Source: an uncultured Bacillota bacterium
Lineage (GTDB): Bacteria > Bacillota > Dethiobacteria > DTU022 > UBA8154
Reading direction: 5' to 3'
Assembly (NCBI GenBank): GCA_937973635.1
Contig: CALJJZ010000035.1
Location: 103,947-167,946, forward strand
Length of the DNA: 64,000 nucleotides
Made by a program: the position numbers and the translations under genes
Notes under the pieces: generated by a model
Told to the model about the DNA's origin: nothing
The model's input: the letters and a program-made list of their open reading frames with translations, nothing else
Databases searched by the model: none
Part shown: in pieces, positions 31,029 to 41,878 of the stretch
Numbering within the stretch: the stretch's first letter is position 1
Layout of the letters: the number at the start of each line of letters is the position of its first letter

Positions 31029-32924
31029 TCAGTCGAAGAATTCCCGTTTTAAATAAACGACGGCCAGCGGGGGCAGCGTAAGCTGCAAACTGCAGGGCTG
31101 GTTATGCCACCACAGGGAACCGGCCGGCAGGGGACCGCTGTTTACGCAGCCCGAACCCCCGTATTCCAGGCGGTCGCTGTTGAAAACCTCCCGGTACAAA
31201 CCGGGAAAAGGAACCCCAATACGGTAGTCTTCCCGCACAACCGGGGTAAAATTGCAGACGGCCACGAGGAAAGCCCCATCACCGGCACGGCGCATAAAAG
31301 TAATCACGCTCTGGTTGTGGTCGTTAAGGTCAATCCATTGGAAACCCGGCGGCGCATGATCCTGCTCCCAGAGAGCTTTTTCCCGGCGGTAAAACCAGTT
31401 CAGCTCCCGTACATACCGCTGCATCTTCCCGTGCAGCTCGTAGGAGAGGAGATGCCAGTCCAGGCTCATGCTTTCGTCCCATTCCTTAAACTGGCCCCAC
31501 TCACCCCCCATAAAGAGCAGCTTTTTCCCCGGGTGCGCCGCCATATAGCCGTAAAGCAGGCGCAGGTTGGCAAACTTCTGCCAGTAGTCCCCCGGCATTT
31601 TCTCCAGCAAAGACCCTTTGCTGTGCACCACCTCGTCGTGGGAAAGGGGCAGGATATAGTTTTCCGTATAGGCATACCAGAGGGAAAAAGTCAGCTGGTG
31701 GTGCCGGTACTTGCGGTAAAGGGGATCAGTCCGCATATAGGCAAGGATATCGTTCATCCAGCCCATATTCCACTTGTAGTTAAAACCCAGGCCCCCACAG
31801 TATACGGGAGCGCTTACCAGGGGCCACTGGGTAGAATCTTCGGCAATCATCAGCACCCCGGGGTAATAGTGGAAAACCTGTTTGTTGAGGCGCTGCAGAA
31901 AAGAGACGGCCTCGAGGTTTTCCTTCCCGCCGTAGCAGTTGGGCGTCCATTGTCCTTCCCGGCGCCCGTAATCCAGATAAAGGATGCTGGCCACGGCATC
32001 AACGCGCAGACCGTCGATATGATAATAATCAAACCAGAAAAGGGCGTTGGAGATAAGGAAACTTATGACTTCCGGACGCCCCAGGTCAAAATAAAGGGTG
32101 TCCCAGTCCGGGCTCTCCCGCCGCTGGGGATCACTGTATTCGTAAAGGGGCGTGCCGTCAAAATTGGCCAGGCCATAGGCATTTTTGCAGAAATGTCCCG
32201 GTACCCAATCCAGGATCACGCCAAGGCCCCTGCGGTGGCAGCAATCGACAAAGTACATAAAGTCCTGGGGTGTGCCATAGCGGCTGGTCACGGCATAATA
32301 GCCCGTAGCCTGGTAACCCCAGGAAGCATCAAGGGGATGCTCCGCCAAGGGTAAGAGCTCCAGGTGAGTATAGCCCATCTCCACGGCGTAATCAACCAGG
32401 TCTGCGGCCAGTTCACGGTAAGATAGAAAAGCGCCGTCTTCACCGCGCTTCCAGGAACCGGCATGGACTTCGTAGATGGCAAGGGGCCGCCCGTAGAGGG
32501 TATTTGCCTTACGCTGCTCCAGCCACTCCCCGTCCTGCCAGGGATAGCCCTCAAGGGAACAAAGGCGGGAAGCGTCCCCGGGGCGCCTGTCCGCTGTAAA
32601 GGCATAGGGGTCTGCTTTCAGCAAGAGCTCTCCTGCGGCGGTGAAGATCTCAAACTTGTAAAAATGCCCCTCCTCTGCGCCGGGCACAAAGGTCCACCAC
32701 AGGCCTCCCTCGCTGATGCGCCGCAGGGGGTGGAGCGCGCCCTGCCAGCCGTTAAAATCGCCGCAGACCCTTACCTGCGTGGCGTGGGGTGCCCAGGTAC
32801 AAAAGGACGCCCCTTTTACCCCTTCATACTCAAGGAGGTGAGCGCCCAGCATGGCGTAACTGTGATAGAGGCTGCCTTCATGAAAGAGGTATATCTGCTC
32901 CTTTGAGGGCACGCAGGGTGGCAA
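31029..32924 (-). CDS. glgB: GH13 1,4-alpha-glucan branching enzyme
   Basis: IYEVHAGSW, SWGYQ, DWVPGHF, DGLRVDAVAS, AEDST, LSHDEVVH. Confidence 0.96.
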   Translation of the reverse strand: MPPCVPSKEQIYLFHEGSLYHSYAMLGAHLLEYEGVKGASFCTWAPHATQVRVCGDFNGWQGALHPLRRISEGGLWWTFVPGAEEGHFYKFEIFTAAGELLLKADPYAFTADRRPGDASRLCSLEGYPWQDGEWLEQRKANTLYGRPLAIYEVHAGSWKRGEDGAFLSYRELAADLVDYAVEMGYTHLELLPLAEHPLDASWGYQATGYYAVTSRYGTPQDFMYFVDCCHRRGLGVILDWVPGHFCKNAYGLANFDGTPLYEYSDPQRRESPDWDTLYFDLGRPEVISFLISNALFWFDYYHIDGLRVDAVASILYLDYGRREGQWTPNCYGGKENLEAVSFLQRLNKQVFHYYPGVLMIAEDSTQWPLVSAPVYCGGLGFNYKWNMGWMNDILAYMRTDPLYRKYRHHQLTFSLWYAYTENYILPLSHDEVVHSKGSLLEKMPGDYWQKFANLRLLYGYMAAHPGKKLLFMGGEWGQFKEWDESMSLDWHLLSYELHGKMQRYVRELNWFYRREKALWEQDHAPPGFQWIDLNDHNQSVITFMRRAGDGAFLVAVCNFTPVVREDYRIGVPFPGLYREVFNSDRLEYGGSGCVNSGPLPAGSLWWHNQPCSLQLTLPPLAVVYLKREFFD

Positions 32925-32995
32925 GGCTTGTCCTCCTTTTCCTTTTTTAGAAACTTGGCCTTCAGAAATTAGCGGTCTGGAGGCGCAATTATTAT

Positions 32996-33023
32996 CTTCT
33001 CTAAACTATTATCCTTTTCCTGC
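32996..33023 (-). promoter_or_regulatory. SigH-like promoter upstream of glgB
   Basis: GCAGGAAAA-N12-AGAGAAG. Confidence 0.45.
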
Positions 33024-33041
33024 CCCGGCTAACAAAATTGC

Positions 33042-34172
33042 TCAGGAGTCGATTACGGTCTGGCTGAGCCGGGTATGGGGAGGCAGGGTGAGGCGGGGCC
33101 AGATCTTGACCTCCTCCAGGAGGCAGTGTTCAGCAAGGCAGCACTCCCCTCCCAGCACCACCATCTCTCCCAGGCGGCTGTATGCCCCAATCAGGTTGTT
33201 TGCTCCAAGCAAAGCACCCTCCAGCACCGCCCCGGCACCCAGGCGATTGCCCGGGCCCAAAATACTGCGGCCTACGCTGGAGCCCCGGCTTAAGTACGAA
33301 CCTGCCCCAATTACCGCCGCAGGACCGGCCACTGCCCCTTCTTCCAGGCAGGCCCCGGCCCCCAGGAAAAGGGGGGGGAGAAGCTGCACCCCCCCAGCAA
33401 TATTTACGTGCTGCTCCATCCAGATGCCGGGGCTTACTTCTTCCCCGGGGACGGTAATCCCCCCTTCTCCAGCAAAAGCCAGGTTATGGGCCTGCCGGTA
33501 TGCCGCAAACGTCCCCAGGTCACTCCAGAAGCCCTCGACCACATACCCGTACAGGGGCATCTTCCGTGCCAGCAGCAGAGGGAATAAATCCCTGCTAAAA
33601 TCAAAAAAAGTTCCGGGGGGAACCAGCTCAAGCACTTCCGGTTCCAGGAAATAGGTGCCGGTATTAACCAGGTTGCTGAAAATTTCATGGGGAACTGCGG
33701 GCTTTTCCATATAACGAGTTATACGCCCCTCCCGGTCCAGCGCCGCAATGCCAAAGCCCCGGGGGTCATGATGCCGGAGCAAAAGCAGCGTAGCCAGGGC
33801 GCCCTTTTGCCGGTGGAATTCAAAGGCAGGGATAAGCTCAAAGCCAAAGAGCACATCACCGCTGAGAACGAGCAGCGTCTCCGAGGCACCCGGCGCGGCA
33901 TGGCGAACGCTGCCAGCCGTGCCCAGCGGCTGCGGCTCTACGGCATAAGTAAGCTGCAGCCCCAGGGCAGCGCCGTCGCCGAGATACTGCTCAATGCTCT
34001 CCGGGCAGTAGTGGAGCGTCAACACCGCCCGGCTTACGCCGCTCAACTGCAGTTTTTGGAGGATATAGGAAATTAGGGGACGGTCAAAAAGGGGGAGCAT
34101 GGGTTTAGGCAGCAGGCAGGTAAGGGGATGCAGGCGCGTGCCCAGCCCTCCGGCCATCACCACAGCGTTCAT
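33042..34172 (-). CDS. NDP-sugar pyrophosphorylase (mannose-1-phosphate guanylyltransferase-like)
   Basis: MAGGLGTRL..PKPMLP, PLGTAG, LSGD, EKP, FWSDLG, C-terminal hexapeptide repeats. Confidence 0.88.
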   Translation of the reverse strand: MNAVVMAGGLGTRLHPLTCLLPKPMLPLFDRPLISYILQKLQLSGVSRAVLTLHYCPESIEQYLGDGAALGLQLTYAVEPQPLGTAGSVRHAAPGASETLLVLSGDVLFGFELIPAFEFHRQKGALATLLLLRHHDPRGFGIAALDREGRITRYMEKPAVPHEIFSNLVNTGTYFLEPEVLELVPPGTFFDFSRDLFPLLLARKMPLYGYVVEGFWSDLGTFAAYRQAHNLAFAGEGGITVPGEEVSPGIWMEQHVNIAGGVQLLPPLFLGAGACLEEGAVAGPAAVIGAGSYLSRGSSVGRSILGPGNRLGAGAVLEGALLGANNLIGAYSRLGEMVVLGGECCLAEHCLLEEVKIWPRLTLPPHTRLSQTVIDS

Positions 34173-34256
34173 CTTGATCCCTCCCTTTGAGTTTATTATA
34201 ATCGTTCAGCCATCTTCCGGCAATCTCCGCAAAAATTTCTTTAAAAATTTTTTTAT

Positions 34257-34313
34257 AATTTTAAAAAATTTTTGCAATTTGCCCTTGACAAAAGTTTCGC
34301 ACCATGAGATAAT
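34257..34313 (+). promoter_or_regulatory. Strong SigA promoter with AT-rich 17-mer, driving candidate ncRNA 1
   Basis: AATTTTAAAAAATTTTT (34257-34273), 11 bp, TTGACA (34285-34290), N17, TGn-GATAAT (34308-34313). Confidence 0.8.
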
Positions 34314-34319
34314 CATCAT

Positions 34320-34674
34320 GCAGGTTCCGAGAGGCAGCAAAAAAACCTGCCGGCTCAACAAGAGCAGGGCCACGATCCCGAAAAAGAGCGGCAAGCGTTG
34401 GAGCGTGTCGACTCAGGGAGTGGTGTCACTATAAAGGAGAGCCGGACGTAACGGGAAAGGCAGTGCCGTAAAAGCCAAGGAGGTCCCGAGGTAATCCAGA
34501 CCTCAGGGGCCGGCCAGGCGGTGCCGGACCGGGGCAGCTTCTCCCCATGAAAAAGGAGCCTTCTCCGGTGAGCGCGGGAAAGCCCGTGCAAAGAGGCCGT
34601 GTGGCCTAACGAGCCACAGGCTGGAGAAGCCCTGGGAGAAGGAAAGGGTTTTGGAGATGTCTGTTGGAGCCTGC
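34320..34674 (+). ncRNA. Candidate large structured ncRNA 1 (about 355 nt, possibly extending to about 34815); class unknown
   Basis: Begins 7 nt after the -10; 5' GCAGGUUCCGAGAGG pairs with 3' UCUGUUGGAGCCUGC; internal helices such as 34560-34569/34620-34629 enclose two hairpins; no credible ORF. Confidence 0.72.
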
Positions 34675-34787
34675 TTGCATTGTACAAAAAAAGACGCCTC
34701 AAGCTCCCTGAGAATCATGGGCAGCACAAACTCCGGTGTCTTAAAGCAAAGCATTTTAAATTTTTAAAGCCTTTTTTAAAACTGCTC

Positions 34788-34815
34788 CCCCGCCTCCGGG
34801 CCCGGGGTTTTTTTT
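34788..34815 (+). terminator. Intrinsic terminator downstream of ncRNA 1
   Basis: CCCCG...CGGGG stem followed by T8. Confidence 0.55.
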
Positions 34816-34853
34816 ATACTAAAACCCCCCGTTATCTGACCATTTACCCCGGG

Positions 34854-35088
34854 CTATTTCATCAACCCGGGCAAGAAAGTAGCGATCTGGGGGAAGAGGA
34901 TATTGATAAACATCGCCAGGATCAAGGCCAGCCAGTACGGGGTGACCCCTTTGAACACCGTCTCCACCCGGCGCATAGGTCTGGGCTGGGGCCGGCGCTG
35001 CAGGGGCCGGCACTTTGGGCTGGCAGCCTGCCAGGACAAAAGAACCCAATAAGATGAACACAAGCAAGCAGCTAAAAAGTTTTTTCAT
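34854..35088 (-). pseudogene. TRAP transporter operon remnant: lipoprotein N-terminus joined out of frame to a DctM C-terminus
   Basis: MKKLFSCLLVFILLGSFVLAGC (lipobox)-QPKVPAPAAPAPAQT, then in another frame VETVFKGVTPYWLALILAMFINILFPQIATFLPGLMK, typical of the last DctM helix. Confidence 0.72.
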
Positions 35089-35236
35089 TTTCTTGTAGTA
35101 AGCCTCCCTTTTTATTCTGTGCGTGCTGTCAATCTGTGAAACATTTTTTTACCATGAACCCCTCTTTTAGAGAGTTCTTCCCCGGCGGCAGGCAGCACCC
35201 CCTCTAAGAAAGAGATTTTCTTTCCAGCACTATATT

Positions 35237-35252
35237 TGCAATTTCCGTGCCA
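35237..35252 (-). promoter_or_regulatory. Sigma54 -24/-12 promoter
   Basis: Minus strand TGGCACGGAAATTGCA = TGGCAC-N5-TTGCA consensus; points at the TRAP remnant. Confidence 0.88.
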
Positions 35253-35294
35253 TTACCGCAATTTAATAGAGGGAGGGAATTACCTGTCCCGGGC

Positions 35295-35311
35295 TGTCTA
35301 AAAGAGAGACA
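35295..35311. promoter_or_regulatory. Putative upstream activator site for the sigma54 activator
   Basis: TGTCT-N7-AGACA palindrome between the sigma54 promoter and the divergent activator gene. Confidence 0.45.
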
Positions 35312-35475
35312 TGGCCCTTCACAGAAACGCCGTTATCAGTTAGAATAAGGAGAAAAGCCCGGGGCAAAAGACGCATTATCTCTTCACTCCGGCATGATCT
35401 TAGGAAAGAAAAGGGTTGTCTTTGCCAAATTTGTTGTGGTAAAATGACTAATTTTAAATAAAGGGGTCGGGTCTT

Positions 35476-36852
35476 TTGCAGCTTCAGGAGAGCAAATACT
35501 GGCAGAGCATCAGACAACACCTGGATATAATTTTGGATATGTTTAACGATCCGATTATTATCATCGACCGGGAAGGGACCATCATTTATATAAATGAAGG
35601 ATATGAGCTGCAGCTGGGCGTTAAGCGGGAAAAGGTGCTGGGACGCAATGTCAAAGACAAATATCCCCGGGACAAGCTTCTGGAAACGTTGCGCACGGGT
35701 GAACTGGTAAAAAACCTGGAACACTTTAACGAAACGCTGGGCTATAATATCGTCGCCAGCTTTGTACCCATTAAAGACGAAACAGGAGATATTATTGCCG
35801 TTGCCGGCATCGGCAATATCTCTCCCGTTTATAAGCTGAATTTAAGGCTCAGCCCCATCCATTCTTTTAAGGAAACAAAGTCCACCGACAGCCTGACCAG
35901 GAAAGATATTCCTCCCAGCTTCGACAGCATTATCGGCGAAGCGCCCAAGCTGCTCAAGTGCCTGAAATTATCGGCCCAGGTGGCCAAAGCAGAAGCGACG
36001 GTCATGCTCCGGGGAGAAACGGGCGTGGGCAAAGAGCTCTTTGCCCGGGCCATCCATGATTACAGCGACCGCTGTAAAAACCCCTTTATCGCTGTAAATT
36101 GCGCAGCTATCCCCGAAAATTTAATCGAATCCGAGCTCTTCGGTTATACTGCCGGGTCTTTTACAGGCGCCCGCACTTCCGGGAAAATGGGGAAAATAGA
36201 AATGGCCCATAAAGGCACATTGTTCCTGGATGAAATAGGGGATCTTTCTCCCAGCACGCAGATAAAGCTGCTCCGTTTCACCCAGGAAAAATACGTGGAA
36301 CGGATCGGCGGGGACAAACAGATACCCATCGACGTCAGGATCATCACGGCCACCAACAGGAACCTGGAGCAGATGGTGCAGCAGGGAGAATTCAGGTCCG
36401 ATCTCTATTACAGGTTGAATGTCATCCCCATCCACGTCCCCCCTCTAAGGGAAAGGCCGGAAGATATAGGGATACTGGCCCATTATTTTTTAAATTATTT
36501 TGCGCGGAAATATGGTAAAAAAGTCGGCTTTTCTATGAAAGCCATGGAATGCCTGCATGATTACCACTGGCCCGGCAATATCAGGCAACTAAAAAACGTC
36601 GTGGAACATGCAGTACTCATCTGCACAGGCGACACCATCCACGAAAGCCATTTCAACCTGGAGCAGAATACAAATGTACATGAACTGCCCTTTTTGGATT
36701 TAAATCGGGCAGTGGAATACACGGAAAAAGCAACCATCGAAAAAGCCCTAGAAAAAGCCTATTATAACAAGAGCAAAGCCATTAAATACCTGGGAATCAG
36801 CCGCGGCGCTTTCTATGCCAAATTAAAAAAGTATAAGCTGACCGTCCCTTGA
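35476..36852 (+). CDS. PAS-domain sigma54-dependent transcriptional activator (AAA+, Fis-type HTH)
   Basis: GETGVGKE, ESELFGY, GSFTGA, LFLDEIGD, WPGNIRQL, C-terminal HTH. Confidence 0.95.
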   Translation: MQLQESKYWQSIRQHLDIILDMFNDPIIIIDREGTIIYINEGYELQLGVKREKVLGRNVKDKYPRDKLLETLRTGELVKNLEHFNETLGYNIVASFVPIKDETGDIIAVAGIGNISPVYKLNLRLSPIHSFKETKSTDSLTRKDIPPSFDSIIGEAPKLLKCLKLSAQVAKAEATVMLRGETGVGKELFARAIHDYSDRCKNPFIAVNCAAIPENLIESELFGYTAGSFTGARTSGKMGKIEMAHKGTLFLDEIGDLSPSTQIKLLRFTQEKYVERIGGDKQIPIDVRIITATNRNLEQMVQQGEFRSDLYYRLNVIPIHVPPLRERPEDIGILAHYFLNYFARKYGKKVGFSMKAMECLHDYHWPGNIRQLKNVVEHAVLICTGDTIHESHFNLEQNTNVHELPFLDLNRAVEYTEKATIEKALEKAYYNKSKAIKYLGISRGAFYAKLKKYKLTVP

Positions 36853-36875
36853 AGATGCCAGGAGATGCCAGGTGA

Positions 36876-37418
36876 TCACGGCATCTCCTTCAAGGCCGCC
36901 ACCACTTCCAGGTTGCGGTAACGTTCCTGGTGGTCCAGCCCGTACCCTACCACGTAGAAGTCTGGCAAGCTGAAGCCGCAGTAATCCAGAGGGATATTGA
37001 CGATACGCCTGGCCGGCATGTCCAGAAAAGCGCAGACGCGCAGGCTGGCAGGGTTGCGCGTCCGCAAGTTCTGCATAAGATAGTTCAGGGTCAGGCCCGT
37101 ATCCACAATATCTTCAAGGAGCAGGACATGCCTTTGCACAATACTGCTTTCTAGGTCCTTAGTAATGCGCACGATGCCCCGGGAAGAAGCAGCTCCGGCA
37201 TAGCTGGAGATGCCAATAAAATCAAGGACAAAGGGTATTTCAAGACAGCGGCTCAAGTCCACGGCAAAATAAACGCTGCCGCGCAGCACCGCTACCAGGA
37301 CAAGATCCCCCTTACCGCTGTAATCGGCTGAGATCTTTTCGCCCAGCTCTTTGACCCTAGCTTTAATCTGTTCCCTCGTCAATAAGATCTCCAAATGGTG
37401 GCCTGCCTCCTGTCCCAT
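36876..37418 (-). CDS. hpt: Hypoxanthine phosphoribosyltransferase
   Basis: VLRGS, ISSY, LLEDIVDTGLTL, VVGYGLD..RYRNL. Confidence 0.92.
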   Translation of the reverse strand: MGQEAGHHLEILLTREQIKARVKELGEKISADYSGKGDLVLVAVLRGSVYFAVDLSRCLEIPFVLDFIGISSYAGAASSRGIVRITKDLESSIVQRHVLLLEDIVDTGLTLNYLMQNLRTRNPASLRVCAFLDMPARRIVNIPLDYCGFSLPDFYVVGYGLDHQERYRNLEVVAALKEMP

Positions 37419-37427
37419 TTTTTGGCT

Positions 37428-38435
37428 TTATTCCCCTTTCTCTTCAATCCCGTATTTCTTGAGCAAACCCCGGAAATCCCGCCCATAGATAATCTTAACC
37501 TGCACTTCCGGGTAGATCTCCTTGAGGCGGCGTATTTTTTTATTTTTTTTCCAGACCAGTTGTTGTTTCTGGGTAGTCAGCTCCAGGTACAGATCCTGCT
37601 CGGGCAAATAAAAATCGGGGGTAAAGGCCTCCGTTACCGTCCCTTCGCTGTCCCACTCCAGGGGAAATGTTTTGGGCTCATACAGCCATTTGATGCGGTA
37701 AAAATCAAGCATACGGGCAAACTCGGCCTCGCTGGGGTGGGCAAAATCAGGAGCGGTGCCGGACTGGCGGTTCCCCTCGCCTCTAAGGTCGAGGGGAGTT
37801 TCAGCTTTTTCCTGCTCCCAAAAACGCTGCTCCAGTTCCTGCGCCGTGATTTCACCGGCCTCCTCTTTCAAACGGGCGGCGGTAACAATTAGGCCCGCTG
37901 CCTCCTCCGGGCCCGTTACGCCTGTATTGATGAGCAGATGGTAGAAGGTGGGGTCAAGCCAGTCATAGCCAAAGACCTGGCGCAGGTATGCTTCCCGGTC
38001 CCGGTCCTGTTCCAGAATCAGGCGCGCTGCGGCGGCCTCGTCAAGGTTGTAGAGCCGGCAAACCCGTTCAATTCTGCTCTGCATAGAGGCAAAGATCTTC
38101 ACGTGCAGCGCAGGGGGAAAGTCATGGAAGAGGAACTGGGCACCCCGCCCCACGATTACTAGATTTTCCCTGATAGCCAGATCATAAAAATATTCATGCA
38201 GCCCTTCCAGATAACGGCGGCGCCTGCTTTCGAGCTCCCATCCCGCTGCCTGGTCCGCCGGGCTGATATTTTTTTCGTCAAAAAAAGAAAGCTCCGGTTC
38301 CAGGATGCCGATGGAACGCATCCTGTCGGCGATTTTTGCTTTGTTAATCAGCAGGTAGCCCGTCTTCTCGGCAACCAAGCGCGCCACAAGTTCTCCTGCG
38401 CTGCCGAAATGACGGGAAATGGTGATGACGGCCAT
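37428..38435 (-). CDS. Cytidylate-kinase-like family protein fused to a PD-(D/E)XK-like domain
   Basis: VITISRHFGSAG, VIVGRGAQF, YHLLINT (Cytidylate_kin2-like); C-terminal FAHPSEAEFA..WLYEP..FTPDFYLPEQDLYLELTT. Confidence 0.75.
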   Translation of the reverse strand: MAVITISRHFGSAGELVARLVAEKTGYLLINKAKIADRMRSIGILEPELSFFDEKNISPADQAAGWELESRRRRYLEGLHEYFYDLAIRENLVIVGRGAQFLFHDFPPALHVKIFASMQSRIERVCRLYNLDEAAAARLILEQDRDREAYLRQVFGYDWLDPTFYHLLINTGVTGPEEAAGLIVTAARLKEEAGEITAQELEQRFWEQEKAETPLDLRGEGNRQSGTAPDFAHPSEAEFARMLDFYRIKWLYEPKTFPLEWDSEGTVTEAFTPDFYLPEQDLYLELTTQKQQLVWKKNKKIRRLKEIYPEVQVKIIYGRDFRGLLKKYGIEEKGE

Positions 38436-38517
38436 CCTCAGCCTCCAGACTTTCCTCTTCTATTCCAGGAAATTATATCATAAAAGAGGCAAAAGATTAT
38501 TAGATTATGATTAAATA

Positions 38518-38574
38518 AATTTTAAAAAATTTTTTAAAAATATTGTTGACAAACGAAGACTTTGCTTATATAAT
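38518..38574 (+). promoter_or_regulatory. Consensus SigA promoter with the same AT-rich 17-mer, driving candidate ncRNA 2
   Basis: AATTTTAAAAAATTTTT (38518-38534), 11 bp, TTGACA (38546-38551), N17, TATAAT (38569-38574). Confidence 0.88.
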
Positions 38575-38580
38575 AAGGAT

Positions 38581-38859
38581 AGACAGGTTCCGAGAGGTCC
38601 AAAGGTTAATCCTGAAACCGGTTGTCTTGAGCGGTCGGGCCAGGAGCCAGGTGAAAGCTATGAGCAGCGGGGAAGGGCGCGCCAGCGGCCATCCCGGTTC
38701 GAGCGGAAACCCGGCTGAGATGGAAGGCTGCAGGTCTGGTGCTGAAAGAAAGGGGCAAAAGGGGAAGGTGCAAGGTGCTTCCGCTAGTGCCCGTGAAAGT
38801 AGGCTCCAGGCAAAAAGAAACCGGGGGAAAAACCGATACAGGTCTGTTGGAACCTGTCT
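38581..38859 (+). ncRNA. Candidate large structured ncRNA 2 (about 279 nt), paralogous to ncRNA 1; class unknown
   Basis: Begins 7 nt after the -10; 5' AGACAGGUUCCGAGAGG pairs with 3' UCUGUUGGAACCUGUCU, followed by a U-rich tract; nested helices CCGGUU/AACCGG, CGGGC/GCCCG, GCGCCAG/CUGGUGC. Confidence 0.75.
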
Positions 38860-38922
38860 TTTATTTTTTGTCACTTTTTTTATATAGCGGTTTTATCTTT
38901 GCTCTTTATCTTTGTCGGCACA

Positions 38923-39660
38923 TTAATACCTTTCCCAGAGCGGCCGGCTTAGCTCCGCCACCTCCGCGAAAAACAGCTCCAGATCAGGGGTGACGATCTC
39001 CCTGCTCCGTTCAATAATATCTGTAAACTGGCCGAGGTCAACGGCAGTAACCTGCCGGCGCAGAAACATCTGGTCACGGTAGCCAAGGGCCAGTGAACGG
39101 GCGTCCATTTCACCCCGCTCAATAAATTCCCTGAAAAGGCGATACCCTTGCTCAAGCAGGTCTGCCCGGCCGGGGAAGATGATCTCCATGTTTTTACAAA
39201 TCCGGGCAATCGTACCCGTTGCAGCCAGGGCTTGATGCAAGCGCGTTAAAAGATCCGGCCTTCTGGCATAAAGATAAAGCTCGGCGCCCATCTCGATGAA
39301 ATTATGGGCTTTCCACCAGCCTTCTGCAGGGGACAGGTCGCAGGCTTCGAGCACAGCCTTTATCAGCGGCCTTGCTTTTTCATAACAATAGCCCTTTTCA
39401 TAATCGCGGTACTGCTGGTCACTGTAATAATCAAGGCCGCGGGGGTCAATCCCGTGGCTGATTACCCCCCGGCAGAACAGGCCCATGGTCCTGCCGTGCC
39501 CGTTAAGACTTTCCCAGAACCTGACGCCGAGGGAGTGGCTGTAATGCCAGTCATAACCGCTGAAAAACAAAACATCGGGGAAGATACTTCCCAGCACCGT
39601 TTCCAGATCCCTTTGGGCGAGGGCTTTTTCCGCAAAATATAAATGGGCCAACGGGTACAT
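38923..39660 (-). CDS. Conserved hypothetical protein, zinc-dependent phospholipase C/P1-nuclease-like motifs
   Basis: MYPLAH, LGSIFPD, SH, SHGID..LDYYSD, AHNFIE pattern. Confidence 0.55.
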   Translation of the reverse strand: MYPLAHLYFAEKALAQRDLETVLGSIFPDVLFFSGYDWHYSHSLGVRFWESLNGHGRTMGLFCRGVISHGIDPRGLDYYSDQQYRDYEKGYCYEKARPLIKAVLEACDLSPAEGWWKAHNFIEMGAELYLYARRPDLLTRLHQALAATGTIARICKNMEIIFPGRADLLEQGYRLFREFIERGEMDARSLALGYRDQMFLRRQVTAVDLGQFTDIIERSREIVTPDLELFFAEVAELSRPLWERY

Positions 39661-39813
39661 GTTTCTTCCCCCATGAAAGATAAAAATAAAAGGCGGATGT
39701 ATAAAAGGCAGAAGAAGGGGCTAGAATATAACTGCAACCGGGGAGGTAAATCTCCTGCGTAAGGCAGGATACAGCCTAGAACATAGGTTAGCATTTACAG
39801 GTATCCCCGGTTG

Positions 39814-41355
39814 TTATTTTTTTAGATGCGCACCGGCGGCAGGATCTTCACTGCCGTTTTCGTCCTCGGCGTGGCTGCTTTTTACCTGCGCCTCCATTTC
39901 CCGGGGGCGCAGCGTGGGAAAGAGGATAACATCGCGGATAGAGAGGGAATCGGTGAGGATCATCACCAGCCTGTCAATGCCTATGCCCAGCCCGCCTGTA
40001 GGCGGCATACCATACTCCAGGGCGTGGAGGAAATCCTCGTCCATCATATGTGCTTCTTCATCTCCGGCGGAACGTTTCTGAGCCTGCCGCAGGAAACGCT
40101 CCCGCTGGTCCAAGGGATCGGTCAGCTCGGTAAAAGCATTGGCAATTTCTTTGCCGGCCATAAAAGCTTCAAAACGGTAAGCAAAAGCAGGATTATCGGC
40201 GCAGCGCCGGGCAAGGGGGGAGACGTCAACGGGGTAATCCAGCACAAAGATAGGGCCCCATAGTCTTTCCTCACAGTATTCTTCAAAGAAAGCAAAGAGC
40301 ACTTCTCCCCAGGTAGCCCCTTCTTCCACCGCCAGGCCGCGTTCTCCGGCGAGCTGCCGCGCTGCGGCATCGCCCTCTACCTCCCGAAAATCTACGCCTG
40401 TAAGCTCCGCTACCACGTCAATAAGTTTTTGGCGCGGCCAGGGCACACTGAGGTCCAGTTCCCGGCCCTGATAGGTAATGCGCCTGGTCCCCAGCACTTT
40501 TTCAGCTACATAAAGGACCATGTTTTCCATAAGCTCCATCATATCTTCATAATCGGCATGGGCCTGATAGATCTCGATCATGGTAAATTCCGGGTTATGC
40601 CTGGTAGAGATACCTTCATTGCGAAAAATCCGGCCCAGTTCAAAGACCCTTTCCATGCCCCCCACGATCAGCCGCTTGAGATGCAGTTCCAGGGCAATGC
40701 GCAAATACAGATCCAGATCCAGGCTGTTGTGGTGGGTGATAAAAGGGCGCGCCGCCGCCCCGCCGGCCACGCTATGCATAACAGGGGTTTCTACTTCGAG
40801 AAAATGGCGGTCCGTGAGAAACTGCCTGATGGACTGGATTATTTTGCTGCGTAAAACAAAAACACGCTTCACCTCAGGGTTTGCCAGCAGATCGGCATAA
40901 CGCTGCCGGTAGCGCGTTTCCACATCTTTAAGACCATGCCATTTTTCCGGCAGGGGGCGCAAAGCCTTGGCCAGGAGGCTGAAGGAAAGGATATTAACCG
41001 TTATTTCTCCCGTCCTGGTCTTAAAGACCCTGCCGCGAACGCCGATGATATCACCAATATCCAGGTTTTGGAAAAGAGCATACTGCTCTTCGCCCACCTC
41101 ATCCTGGCGGATATATACCTGTAAACGGCCGCTGCCGTCCTGGATATGGGCAAAGCAGGCCTTGCCATGGCCGCGGCGGGTCATGATGCGGCCCGCCATG
41201 CTTACCTCCTGCCCTTCCAGCTCCACAAAACGATCCCGTACCTGCTCAGTAGTATGGGTAACAGGATACTTCAGGCCGTAAGGCTCTACTCCCTGCGCTC
41301 TTAGTTCATTAACTTTGTTGCGTCTAAGCAGCAACTGTTCACCCAGATGTTCCAT
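39814..41355 (-). CDS. lysS: Lysine--tRNA ligase (class II)
   Basis: RYRQRY, GGAAARPF, FRNEG..HNPEFT, YGMPPTGGLGIGIDRL. Confidence 0.98.
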   Translation of the reverse strand: MEHLGEQLLLRRNKVNELRAQGVEPYGLKYPVTHTTEQVRDRFVELEGQEVSMAGRIMTRRGHGKACFAHIQDGSGRLQVYIRQDEVGEEQYALFQNLDIGDIIGVRGRVFKTRTGEITVNILSFSLLAKALRPLPEKWHGLKDVETRYRQRYADLLANPEVKRVFVLRSKIIQSIRQFLTDRHFLEVETPVMHSVAGGAAARPFITHHNSLDLDLYLRIALELHLKRLIVGGMERVFELGRIFRNEGISTRHNPEFTMIEIYQAHADYEDMMELMENMVLYVAEKVLGTRRITYQGRELDLSVPWPRQKLIDVVAELTGVDFREVEGDAAARQLAGERGLAVEEGATWGEVLFAFFEEYCEERLWGPIFVLDYPVDVSPLARRCADNPAFAYRFEAFMAGKEIANAFTELTDPLDQRERFLRQAQKRSAGDEEAHMMDEDFLHALEYGMPPTGGLGIGIDRLVMILTDSLSIRDVILFPTLRPREMEAQVKSSHAEDENGSEDPAAGAHLKK

Positions 41356-41404
41356 GGAGATACCAACCTCTGTATTTTTTATTTCTGTGCCGGCTGTTTT
41401 GCCC

Positions 41405-41878
41405 CTATTTTATTTCCAGTATTTTATATTTAATGGTCCCTGCCGGAACCTTGACTTCAACTACAGCTCCCACGGGCAGGCCCAGGATCGCCTGGCCCAC
41501 GGGCGATTCGTTGGAAATACGGTTGTTTGCCGGATCTGATTCTGCCGTCCCTACAATAGTAAACTCCATGACCTCGTCTCCGTCCAGGTCCTGGAGCTTC
41601 ACCGTACAGCCCACCCCCACAACATCCCGGTTTACCTCGTCGTCTTCAATCAACCGGGCATTACGCAGCATCTTCTCCAGGGTAATGATCTTGCCCTCAA
41701 TAAAGGCCTGCTCATTTTTGGCGTTGTCATACTCAGCGTTTTCGCTCAGGTCGCCGAAAGAAATCGCCGTTTTAATCCGGTTTGCCACTTCTCTCCTTTT
41801 TACTGACTTAAGGTAAGCGAGCTCTTCTTCCAGCTTCTTCAAGCCGCTCTGAGTGAGGATCACCTCTTTGGATGACAT
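41405..41878 (-). CDS. greA: Transcription elongation factor GreA
   Basis: [19 protein letters not shown]. Confidence 0.97.

Follow-up and report, generated by a model that had tools for sequence, protein, structure and literature searches.

A clamp-ended structured RNA beside the cmkL-hptB operon of Dethiobacteria and its possible role as a protein-binding regulatory RNA

The stretch of DNA discussed here, called the window, comprises 64,000 nucleotides (nt) of contig CALJJZ010000035.1 from an uncultured bacterium of the Dethiobacteria (Bacillota; assembly GCA_937973635.1, genome G000 below). Positions 38581-38860 of its plus strand hold a discrete RNA gene of about 280 nt, ncRNA 2, transcribed from a strong sigma-70 promoter of its own up to a U tract that directly follows the closing stem. 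The promoter (38546-38574) is composed of TTGACA (38546-38551), a 17-nt spacer and TATAAT (38569-38574). It matches at 12 of 12 positions and is the sole 12/12 match that a promoter scan found within 34000-39200. An AT-rich stretch on the same strand (38500-38545) lies 5' of the -35 box and may act like an UP element; the same is seen in the other copies shown. The 5' strand of the closing stem P1, AGACAGGUUCCGA (38581-38593), forms 13 standard pairs out of 13 with UUGGAACCUGUCU (38847-38859), and the U tract UUUAUUUUUU (38860-38869), the presumed termination site, directly abuts the stem. Inside P1 a G (38594) lies opposite another G (38846), and this mismatch is followed by a second helix, P2, in which AGGUC (38595-38599) pairs with GGUCU (38841-38845). 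The segment 38841-38859, which contains the 3' strand of P2, the mismatched G38846 and the 3' strand of P1, is also able to form a local hairpin (38838-38857) that is followed by CTTTTATTTT. This hairpin has the G+C-rich stem and U run of an intrinsic terminator, and the U run behind it is the run that also follows P1. All the genes that flank ncRNA 2, namely hptB, cmkL, unk245, lysS and greA, are on the minus strand. A first-pass annotation of this DNA had described a perfect promoter, a closing stem leading straight into a U tract and a stand-alone unit with both neighbouring genes on the opposite strand, and each of these descriptions holds.

The plus strand of ncRNA 2 folds with a minimum free energy of -129.7 kcal/mol, compared with -100.8 +/- 5.3 kcal/mol in 200 shuffled sequences, none of which folded as well (z -5.43); the z value for the opposite strand of the region is -3.36. 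Eight helices nested in the window sequence had been proposed for ncRNA 2, forming a rod that ends in a junction. Their conservation was assessed in an alignment of five orthologues from the same genus (A2), as the percentage of cells paired relative to slid controls. The three outer helices are conserved: the closing stem is paired in 98.5% of cells, the GGUU/AACC helix in 100% and the CCGGUU/AACCGG helix in 82.8%. The five inner helices, GUCUUGAGC/GCUCCAGGC (42%), CGGGC/GCCCG (44%), GCGCCAG/CUGGUGC (57%), CCAUC/GAUGG (52%) and GGAAG/CUUCC (52%), drop to the level of the slid controls (36-49%). The RNAalifold model of the same alignment has 81 pairs, with 90.8% of cells paired (33-56% in slid controls) and compensatory changes in 15 of the pairs. 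It is a rod with a branched body at its end, and its inner partners differ from the earlier scheme; the partner of GCUCCAGGC, for example, is GGUCUGG..., and that of GCCCG is GGGGC. The description of a rod plus branches is therefore right, whereas the inner pairing scheme has to be revised.

A discrete transcript of about 280 nt had been predicted, and an RNA library supports it. Metatranscriptome run X3 (25.7 M letters) gives a 246-nt contig that corresponds to 38615-38860 with three differing letters and a depth of 10.3, and in the same run the flanks of ncRNA 2 have no cover. The contig is located wholly inside the predicted transcript and stops at the first U of the tract (38860). A contig of this kind cannot show the strand or the true ends, and carry-over of DNA is possible; yet for a library this small, cover restricted to the element is consistent with an RNA that is discrete and abundant in a close relative. 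A 161-nt piece corresponding to 38588-38748 was also seen in run X4 (hot-spring DNA), from which no habitat claim is drawn.

A second RNA of the window, ncRNA 1 (34320-34675, plus strand), was found through a 14-nt self-match in the genome. It has a promoter, TTGACA-17-GATAAT with a TG, at 34285-34313 on the plus strand (11/12 matches). The two RNAs have in common their ends alone, which read CAGGUUCCGAGAGG at the 5' side and GUCUGUUGGA(A/G)CCUG at the 3' side. The proposed kinship of the two RNAs is thus upheld by a shared terminal clamp. The suggestion that ncRNA 2 represents the minimal core of the family was mistaken: some members measure 154-205 nt, another lineage has relatives of about 150 nt, and the interiors of the two window RNAs are not shared. 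BLAST recovers ncRNA 2 at full length in 4/4 genomes of the same genus (70-73% identity) and its ends in 15/24 genomes of the source family, f1; it recovered nothing in 16 genomes of other families, so the wider range of the family is known solely from a motif pattern. The pattern is made of YCCGAGARR toward the 5' end and GYYUGUUGGR toward the 3' end; membership of the family further calls for the G-G mismatch and a complementary P1 outside the two motifs. ncRNA 2 matches both motifs exactly, has all 13 P1 pairs and scores 57.5 bits (E 1.9e-14) with covariance model R1. R1, the shorter model, detects ncRNA 2 and misses ncRNA 1, and its coverage of the family is therefore partial. The two-motif pattern gave 40 matches in 21/33 f1 genomes vs 8 for a reversed control, and it matches in 72 of the 115 genomes of the order.

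From the fetched loci 71 distinct members were collected, each kept if it had at least 8 of 9 outer P1 pairs, and they were typed by the letters that follow the 5' motif. There are 21 A-type members of 156-296 nt, including ncRNA 2, 15 B-type members of 156-386 nt, including ncRNA 1, 18 C-type members of 186-319 nt, 11 D-type members of 280-322 nt and 6 that are unclassed. The interiors of types A to D are unrelated and 120-350 nt long; the sizes of all members span 154-386 nt. To judge from the sequences compared, the A type is restricted to the source bacterial family. The family as a whole is spread throughout the Dethiobacteria, and a few further lineages of the phylum have it too. Its hallmark is the terminal clamp formed by the 5' and 3' ends, and each type has its own conserved, covarying, purine-rich body. 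The clamp consists of P1, then CCGA/UUGG, the G-G mismatch and a P2 of 4-5 base pairs. G lies opposite G in 71/71 members. The first pair of P2 is A-U in 69 of the 71; the second is G-C in 63 and A-U in 6; the fourth is C-G in 51, U.G in 15 and U-A in 5. The third pair, clamp position 8 (38597/38843 in the window), is G.U in 41 members, A opposite C in 19 and A-U in 9. G.U and A.C pairs can adopt the same wobble shape, which would mean that geometry rather than base identity is kept at this position. The clamp may resemble loop-E-type motifs. In outer P1 the pairs covary, and one position is C-G in 31 members, A-U in 21 and G-C in 11; the set was selected for pairing, and the variety of pair types is free of that bias.

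The features around the clamp are also shared. TTGAC is located 33-38 nt upstream of the cut-out P1 in 70/71 members, with a peak at 34 nt, and ncRNA 2 has it in this range. At least 5 T are found among the first 8 nt after P1 in 56/71 members. The local 3' hairpin, as an alternative terminator, has a mean energy of -5.8 kcal/mol vs -4.4 in shuffles, with 47/71 members at or below -5, which is a weak signal. The motif TGTAC occurs at most 30 nt after P1 in 25/71 members (for example at L085, L088 and L031), compared with 0/71 in an upstream control stretch. It is commonest after B types (10/15). The B-type ncRNA 1 of the window lacks a U run directly after P1 and has a conserved ATGTAC-like motif there, with a terminator-like hairpin at 34794-34807. 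There are 2-4 paralogues per genome. The 4.1-Mb genome G041 of genus g10 has four model matches on three contigs (L041; C19, C29 and C30), more than its relatives. G214 and G146 each have two copies 1-2 nt apart with a promoter on the first copy only (L155:2007-2421, plus; L158:1074-1517, minus), and the G214 pair lies directly downstream of two tRNA genes. Such tandem copies suggest co-transcription and processing at the clamp.

Neither Rfam 15 nor the literature searched contains the clamp-ended family. With Rfam 15 at gathering scores the single match in the whole window is a tRNA, and at E<=10 the region 38400-39000 gives four matches (E 1.1-7.9), none meaningful. The identities named beforehand as those that would overturn the first-pass annotation were 6S RNA, signal recognition particle (SRP) RNA and RNase P RNA. 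Their Rfam models place all three elsewhere in the genome: 6S RNA (RF00013) has no match at E<=10 in 38400-39000 and is located at G000:C27:3237-3413 (98.8 bits), SRP RNA (RF01854) has no match in the region and is at C42:13936-14202 (184.3 bits), and RNase P RNA (RF00010), likewise without a match there, is at C62:52350-52762 (308.1 bits). A retron RNA was considered, and none of the ten open reading frames (ORFs) scanned in 31029-41878 matched a reverse-transcriptase family in Pfam; seven match other families and three match none. As for a riboswitch or cis leader, both neighbours of ncRNA 2 are on the minus strand, and the same-strand upstream position of a leader is occupied solely by the distant 150-nt relatives described below (G144, G230 and G268). 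A reading of the cassette as a defence system was also dismissed, since PADLOC, run on three neighbours, gave only PDC-S69 (E 1.3e-4 on 56 residues) and pVip-kinase (E 0.005). The loci of other lineages gave tRNAs, one thiamine pyrophosphate (TPP) riboswitch and sub-gathering matches, and otherwise no match to Rfam. A full-text search, supplements excluded, found no description of a clamp-ended RNA family. The main texts of PMC11109978 and PMC8632094 make no mention of Dethiobacter, hypoxanthine, hprT or cytidylate, and their supplements could list such a motif.

The genes beside the RNA recur with it. In the fetched f1 loci the order is B-type RNA, hpt, cmkL, A-type RNA, unk245 and lysS, with the RNAs on the strand opposite to the genes. 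The RNA that faces hpt-cmkL in f3 is C-like and about 315 nt long, the D type being found elsewhere, and an RNA also faces hpt-cmkL in f6, f38 and f56. These three, of which f6 belongs to the same class, are the only families outside the order with matches taken as real in a pattern scan of 401 genomes of the phylum, and each match adjoins hpt-cmkL. In this phylum sample the RNA was found in cmkL-bearing genomes only.

For the 115 genomes of the order, cmkL was tallied by profile A3 and the RNA by the pattern plus model R1. Six pattern matches were counted as chance, four of which failed the closing-stem test while those in G027 and G032 were judged from the letters only, and G034, which matches in the kinase domain alone, was counted as lacking cmkL. 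Both partners occur in 59 genomes, the RNA only in 9, cmkL only in 3 and neither in 44. By family, the counts for both, RNA only, cmkL only and neither are 22, 1, 0 and 10 in f1; 35, 8, 3 and 27 in f3; 2, 0, 0 and 5 in f5; and 0, 0, 0 and 2 in f2 and f4. The three cmkL-only genomes are 58-86% complete. Five of the RNA-only genomes are 64-86% complete and the other four (G061, G067, G094 and G097) are 93-100% complete; G061 and G094 have a D-type copy only. By pattern and R1, no copy of any type was found in the 44 genomes without cmkL, even though the C type in f1 and the D type in f3 lie away from the cassette in RNA-bearing genomes. The absence of off-cassette copies from cmkL-less genomes is more telling than the joint loss of the cassette.

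The product of cmkL (37428-38435, minus strand), which diverges from ncRNA 2, has a kinase-like domain (PF13189, E 1.6e-32) and a C-terminal endonuclease-I-like domain at residues 230-335. Its N-terminal half has the PF13189 kinase-like fold, with 3hdt and 3fdi as the best structural matches, and its sequence reads as lacking the P-loop lysine. The last 100 or so residues are the most conserved part of the protein; D274, E285, K297, N298 and K300 are among the invariant residues, and the C-terminal domain contains an invariant basic helix (291-307). Residues 238-322 weakly match T7 endonuclease I (3cae, E 0.011), and features of the C-terminal domain resemble Phage_endo_I clusters at 0.89, under the lead threshold of the tool. 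The usual ExK lysine is not in place and the nuclease assignment is weak. A fold search with a model of CmkL gave kinase folds alone among the matches listed and did not resolve the C-terminal domain. This domain is encoded alone in loci L139-L141 of Actinomycetota metagenome-assembled genomes (MAGs), just upstream of hpt in L140. Full-length cmkL is present in about 30 further genomes of the phylum sample, and cmkL-hpt occurs in Atribacterota and many Bacillota lineages.

In the window cmkL shares its operon with hptB (36876-37418, minus strand; TIGR01203, 192 bits), and the cassette that the two genes form is accessory. Five genomes that lack both the RNA and cmkL have a single hpt, and the two such loci scanned have the order tilS-hpt-ftsH. 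G000 also carries a tilS-linked hpt, on contig C17, and the hpt of the window is therefore a second copy, hptB. The match to the classical hpt after tilS (G000:C17:12367-14394; L178, L181) shows one TAA inside the reported open frame. A gene for a PAS/sigma-54 activator (35476-36852, plus strand) lies between ncRNA 1 and hpt in the source genome alone; the B-type RNA of relatives faces the 3' end of hpt directly. The gene on the other side of ncRNA 2, unk245 (38923-39660, minus strand), encodes a protein of 245 amino acids (aa). It was considered as a partner of the cassette and set aside, as it is present in the RNA-less genomes G007, G012, G018, G019, G024 and G044 and absent from f3 (0/73). 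Read from their translations, the neighbours of D-type copies are an aminotransferase gene on the upstream side and, downstream, either genes resembling those of proline synthesis or one larger gene; on this reading they point to no shared function.

A different arrangement exists in family f36, where the relatives that R1 finds are about 150 nt long and share the strand of the genes. G144 and G230 have cmkL, RNA1, hpt and RNA2, in this order, on one strand. RNA1 of G144 has a promoter-like TTTACA-17-TATACT, a closing stem and a U7 run, after which the hpt ribosome-binding site and ATG come no more than 45 nt later. Judged by its layout, RNA1 of these two genomes looks like an attenuator in front of hptB. 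The f36 relatives keep the 5' strand CCGAGAGGUC, and their 3' strand reads GAUCACUCGG; the purine-purine mismatch therefore shifts by one position, to A opposite A. The 5' strand of the clamp, CCGAGAGG, is thus retained alongside an altered 3' strand and an A-A mismatch.

PyrR-type attenuators and the Y RNAs are the nearest functional analogues of the clamp RNAs, which belong to neither group. As in the pyr attenuators (RF00515), a phosphoribosyltransferase-type gene shares an operon with RNA elements, the elements of G144 and G230 lie between cistrons and end in terminators, and the 5' strand of the clamp, UCC-GAGAGGC, is one letter off the Rfam consensus UCCaGaGAGGCU of the PyrR site. However, the PyrR motif is the hairpin loop of a stem-loop of about 40 nt, whereas the clamp motif is one strand of a helix that closes 120-350 nt. 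A PyrR site was accordingly rejected for ncRNA 2: RF00515 has no match at E<=10, the motif is in a long-range helix and not in a hairpin, and the likeness is one of sequence only. HptB differs from PyrR in scoring as a true hypoxanthine-guanine phosphoribosyltransferase (192 bits, compared with 24 bits for PyrR), and the clamp RNAs of Dethiobacter are on the strand opposite to the operon. Y RNAs, which act with Ro, are paralogous small stable RNAs; their ends pair into a conserved stem that binds protein and contains a helix irregularity, and the remainder varies. The clamp family likewise consists of paralogues with paired, conserved ends and a variable remainder, but its bodies are much larger and conserved within each type, and it has no Rfam match. 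A Ro ribonucleoprotein (RNP) was looked for through PF05731 (TROVE), which is found in 0/1 genome (96% complete); a control search was positive in Deinococcus and Bacteroides. 6S RNA, of which some bacteria have two paralogues, is also an abundant, promoter-driven, rod-like RNA with paired ends. The body of ncRNA 2 is branched, and the central-bubble architecture of 6S RNA is absent from its comparative model. To our knowledge, new families of large bacterial RNAs with elaborate folds seldom come to light, and the majority of those known have proved to have basic functions. OLE, raiA, ROOL and GOLLD, all in Rfam, resemble the clamp RNAs in being purine-rich, elaborately folded, restricted to lineages and not readable in function from their neighbours. 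None of their models matches the clamp RNAs, which differ from them by their several paralogue types with a single terminal module in common and by being tightly linked to one operon. The mode of action of the clamp family is likely a variant of that of known protein-binding regulatory RNAs.

What, then, could the clamp RNAs do? The explanation that we prefer, and hold tentatively, is that they are protein-binding regulatory RNAs of the cmkL-hptB module. The clamp would be the common docking site for a protein of this operon; the protein is sought there because the RNA genes flank the operon and co-occur with it. CmkL would be the best candidate, with its nucleotide-kinase-like domain and its endonuclease-I-like domain bearing the invariant basic helix. 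In the short cis form, formation of the clamp before the U run would terminate transcription ahead of hpt, making this form an attenuator that depends on a protein (or a nucleotide). The long stand-alone copies of Dethiobacter, including ncRNA 2, would act in trans by binding or titrating the same protein, and they may thereby tune a second purine-salvage module. A protein site appears more likely than a ligand pocket, judged from the pattern of conservation, because the invariant letters are located at the base of the closing helix and are common to paralogues with unrelated bodies, and because CCGAGAGG is kept despite the change of the 3' strand while the C-terminal domain of CmkL is the most conserved and its basic helix is invariant. 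A broader proposal, in which the clamp RNAs, CmkL and the Hpt paralogue form an undescribed RNA-protein system with the bodies as specificity modules on a common docking clamp, is conceivable and rather doubtful; such a system might sense purine nucleotides as an RNP, or be an enzyme complex guided or scaffolded by RNA, with cis and trans forms according to lineage.

Several observations weigh against a protein-binding role in the cmkL-hptB module. Contact of the RNA with CmkL or HptB is a step that we infer. ncRNA 2 has no cis target, because no gene lies downstream on its own strand, and the body of each paralogue is conserved and covarying, which is more than a mere protein-binding site needs. 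The joint loss of RNA and cmkL could be explained by one deletion of a contiguous cassette, and related genomes are not independent samples. In nine genomes the RNA occurs without a detected cmkL, and one of these is a 100% complete MAG with a D-type copy only. Conversely, seven cmkL-hpt loci of other lineages (L196-L202) have no member by R1 or motif, L196 being on a contig that is short on the hpt side, and no RNA of the clamp family was found adjoining cmkL-hpt in two Atribacterota loci or at L134. The scores of the f36 relatives with R1 are weak (14.7-24.8 bits), and in G268, where the order is RNA, cmkL and hpt, the U run is absent after P1.

Other explanations fit parts of the same evidence. 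It is unlikely that the clamp RNAs sense a metabolite, with the body as an aptamer for a purine-related compound and ligand-dependent closure of P1 next to the U run setting termination. The layout in G144 and G230, with promoter, RNA, U7, ribosome-binding site and hpt, is riboswitch-like, a U run directly follows P1 in most members (56/71), the neighbour is a purine-salvage gene, and B and C types converge on hpt in five lineages. There is also a precedent for an aptamer embedded in a terminator, the hydroxymethylpyrimidine pyrophosphate (HMP-PP, thiS) riboswitch, which is reported (PMC6478431) to have a folded domain inside the stem that precedes the U run, as do the cis copies of G144 and G230. 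With a folded domain in this position, closing of the stem could itself terminate transcription. The HMP-PP riboswitch is reportedly small and always upstream of its gene, whereas the window copies have no downstream gene on the same strand. With a sensor, read-through in Dethiobacter would be antisense, from the B type into hptB-cmkL and from the A type into unk245-lysS-greA. Against a sensor, the invariant letters are in the closing helix rather than in a junction, and a single pocket is hard to place since the paralogues have no common body and vary in size between 154 and 386 nt. A stable product of termination is suggested instead by the strong consensus promoters and by an RNA contig that ends where P1 ends; the B type and hpt are separated in G000 by a sigma-54 activator gene, and D-type copies stand beside genes that, as their translations read, are unrelated. 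A protein bound at the clamp has to be set, too, against a more general stable RNA, an abundant scaffold or decoy like the Y RNAs or 6S RNA, whose clamp binds some other lineage-specific factor and whose gene order is merely inherited. The consensus promoters with their AT-rich upstream stretches would suit it, as would the presence in a genome of 2-4 paralogues that share the structure of their ends and differ in their bodies, the copies of f6 and f38 directly downstream of tRNA genes with tandem copies 1-2 nt apart, and assembly of the RNA from a very small library. We consider it improbable to about the same degree as a sensor, as in several classes the distribution of the RNA is nested inside that of cmkL, cmkL-less genomes have no copies found elsewhere either, and the source genome has a normal 6S RNA and gave no match in the search for a Ro/TROVE gene.

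A third role would make the RNA a substrate of CmkL, with the endonuclease-I-like domain cutting the branched or mismatched clamp, the kinase-like domain acting on the ends and tandem copies being released at P1. The sole promoter on the first of two copies 1-2 nt apart accords with this, and so do the resemblance of the C-terminal domain to a junction-cutting nuclease (3cae, E 0.011; Phage_endo_I, 0.89) and the excess of TGTAC within 30 nt after P1 (25/71 vs 0/71 in the control). We nevertheless think it quite improbable, given a weak nuclease assignment with the ExK lysine out of place and a kinase-like domain that by its sequence has no P-loop lysine; no processing sites were seen, though contigs cannot show them. 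That there is no RNA gene at all, and that the region is a chance fold, a coding stretch (ORF 38543-38887, 114 aa) or a long terminator shared by convergent genes, is scarcely credible. ORFs of 102-114 aa do overlap the region on both strands, and the stem with its U tract also scores as a terminator. This idea is already contradicted by the RNA contig, which is confined to the element, by the compensatory changes in 15/81 pairs and by the promoter at a fixed distance in 70/71 members; the orthologues moreover differ in length, and the gaps in the interior of their alignment are of many lengths.

The family is tractable by experiment: its G-G clamp is sharply defined, there are several paralogues per genome and both cis and trans forms, and its two-gene partner cassette appears and disappears with the RNA. 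If the link is functional, there would be a second, RNA-dependent layer of purine-salvage control in anaerobic Bacillota and a role for the widespread, unstudied CmkL-Hpt operon. Even without a functional link a covariance model for the family is warranted, as annotation now leaves these loci blank. One further element of the source genome resembles a PyrR site. It is located at G000:C9:844-1011 (minus strand; L203), scores 22.4 bits against a cut-off of 54, has a terminator-like 3' hairpin and may be a pyr leader.

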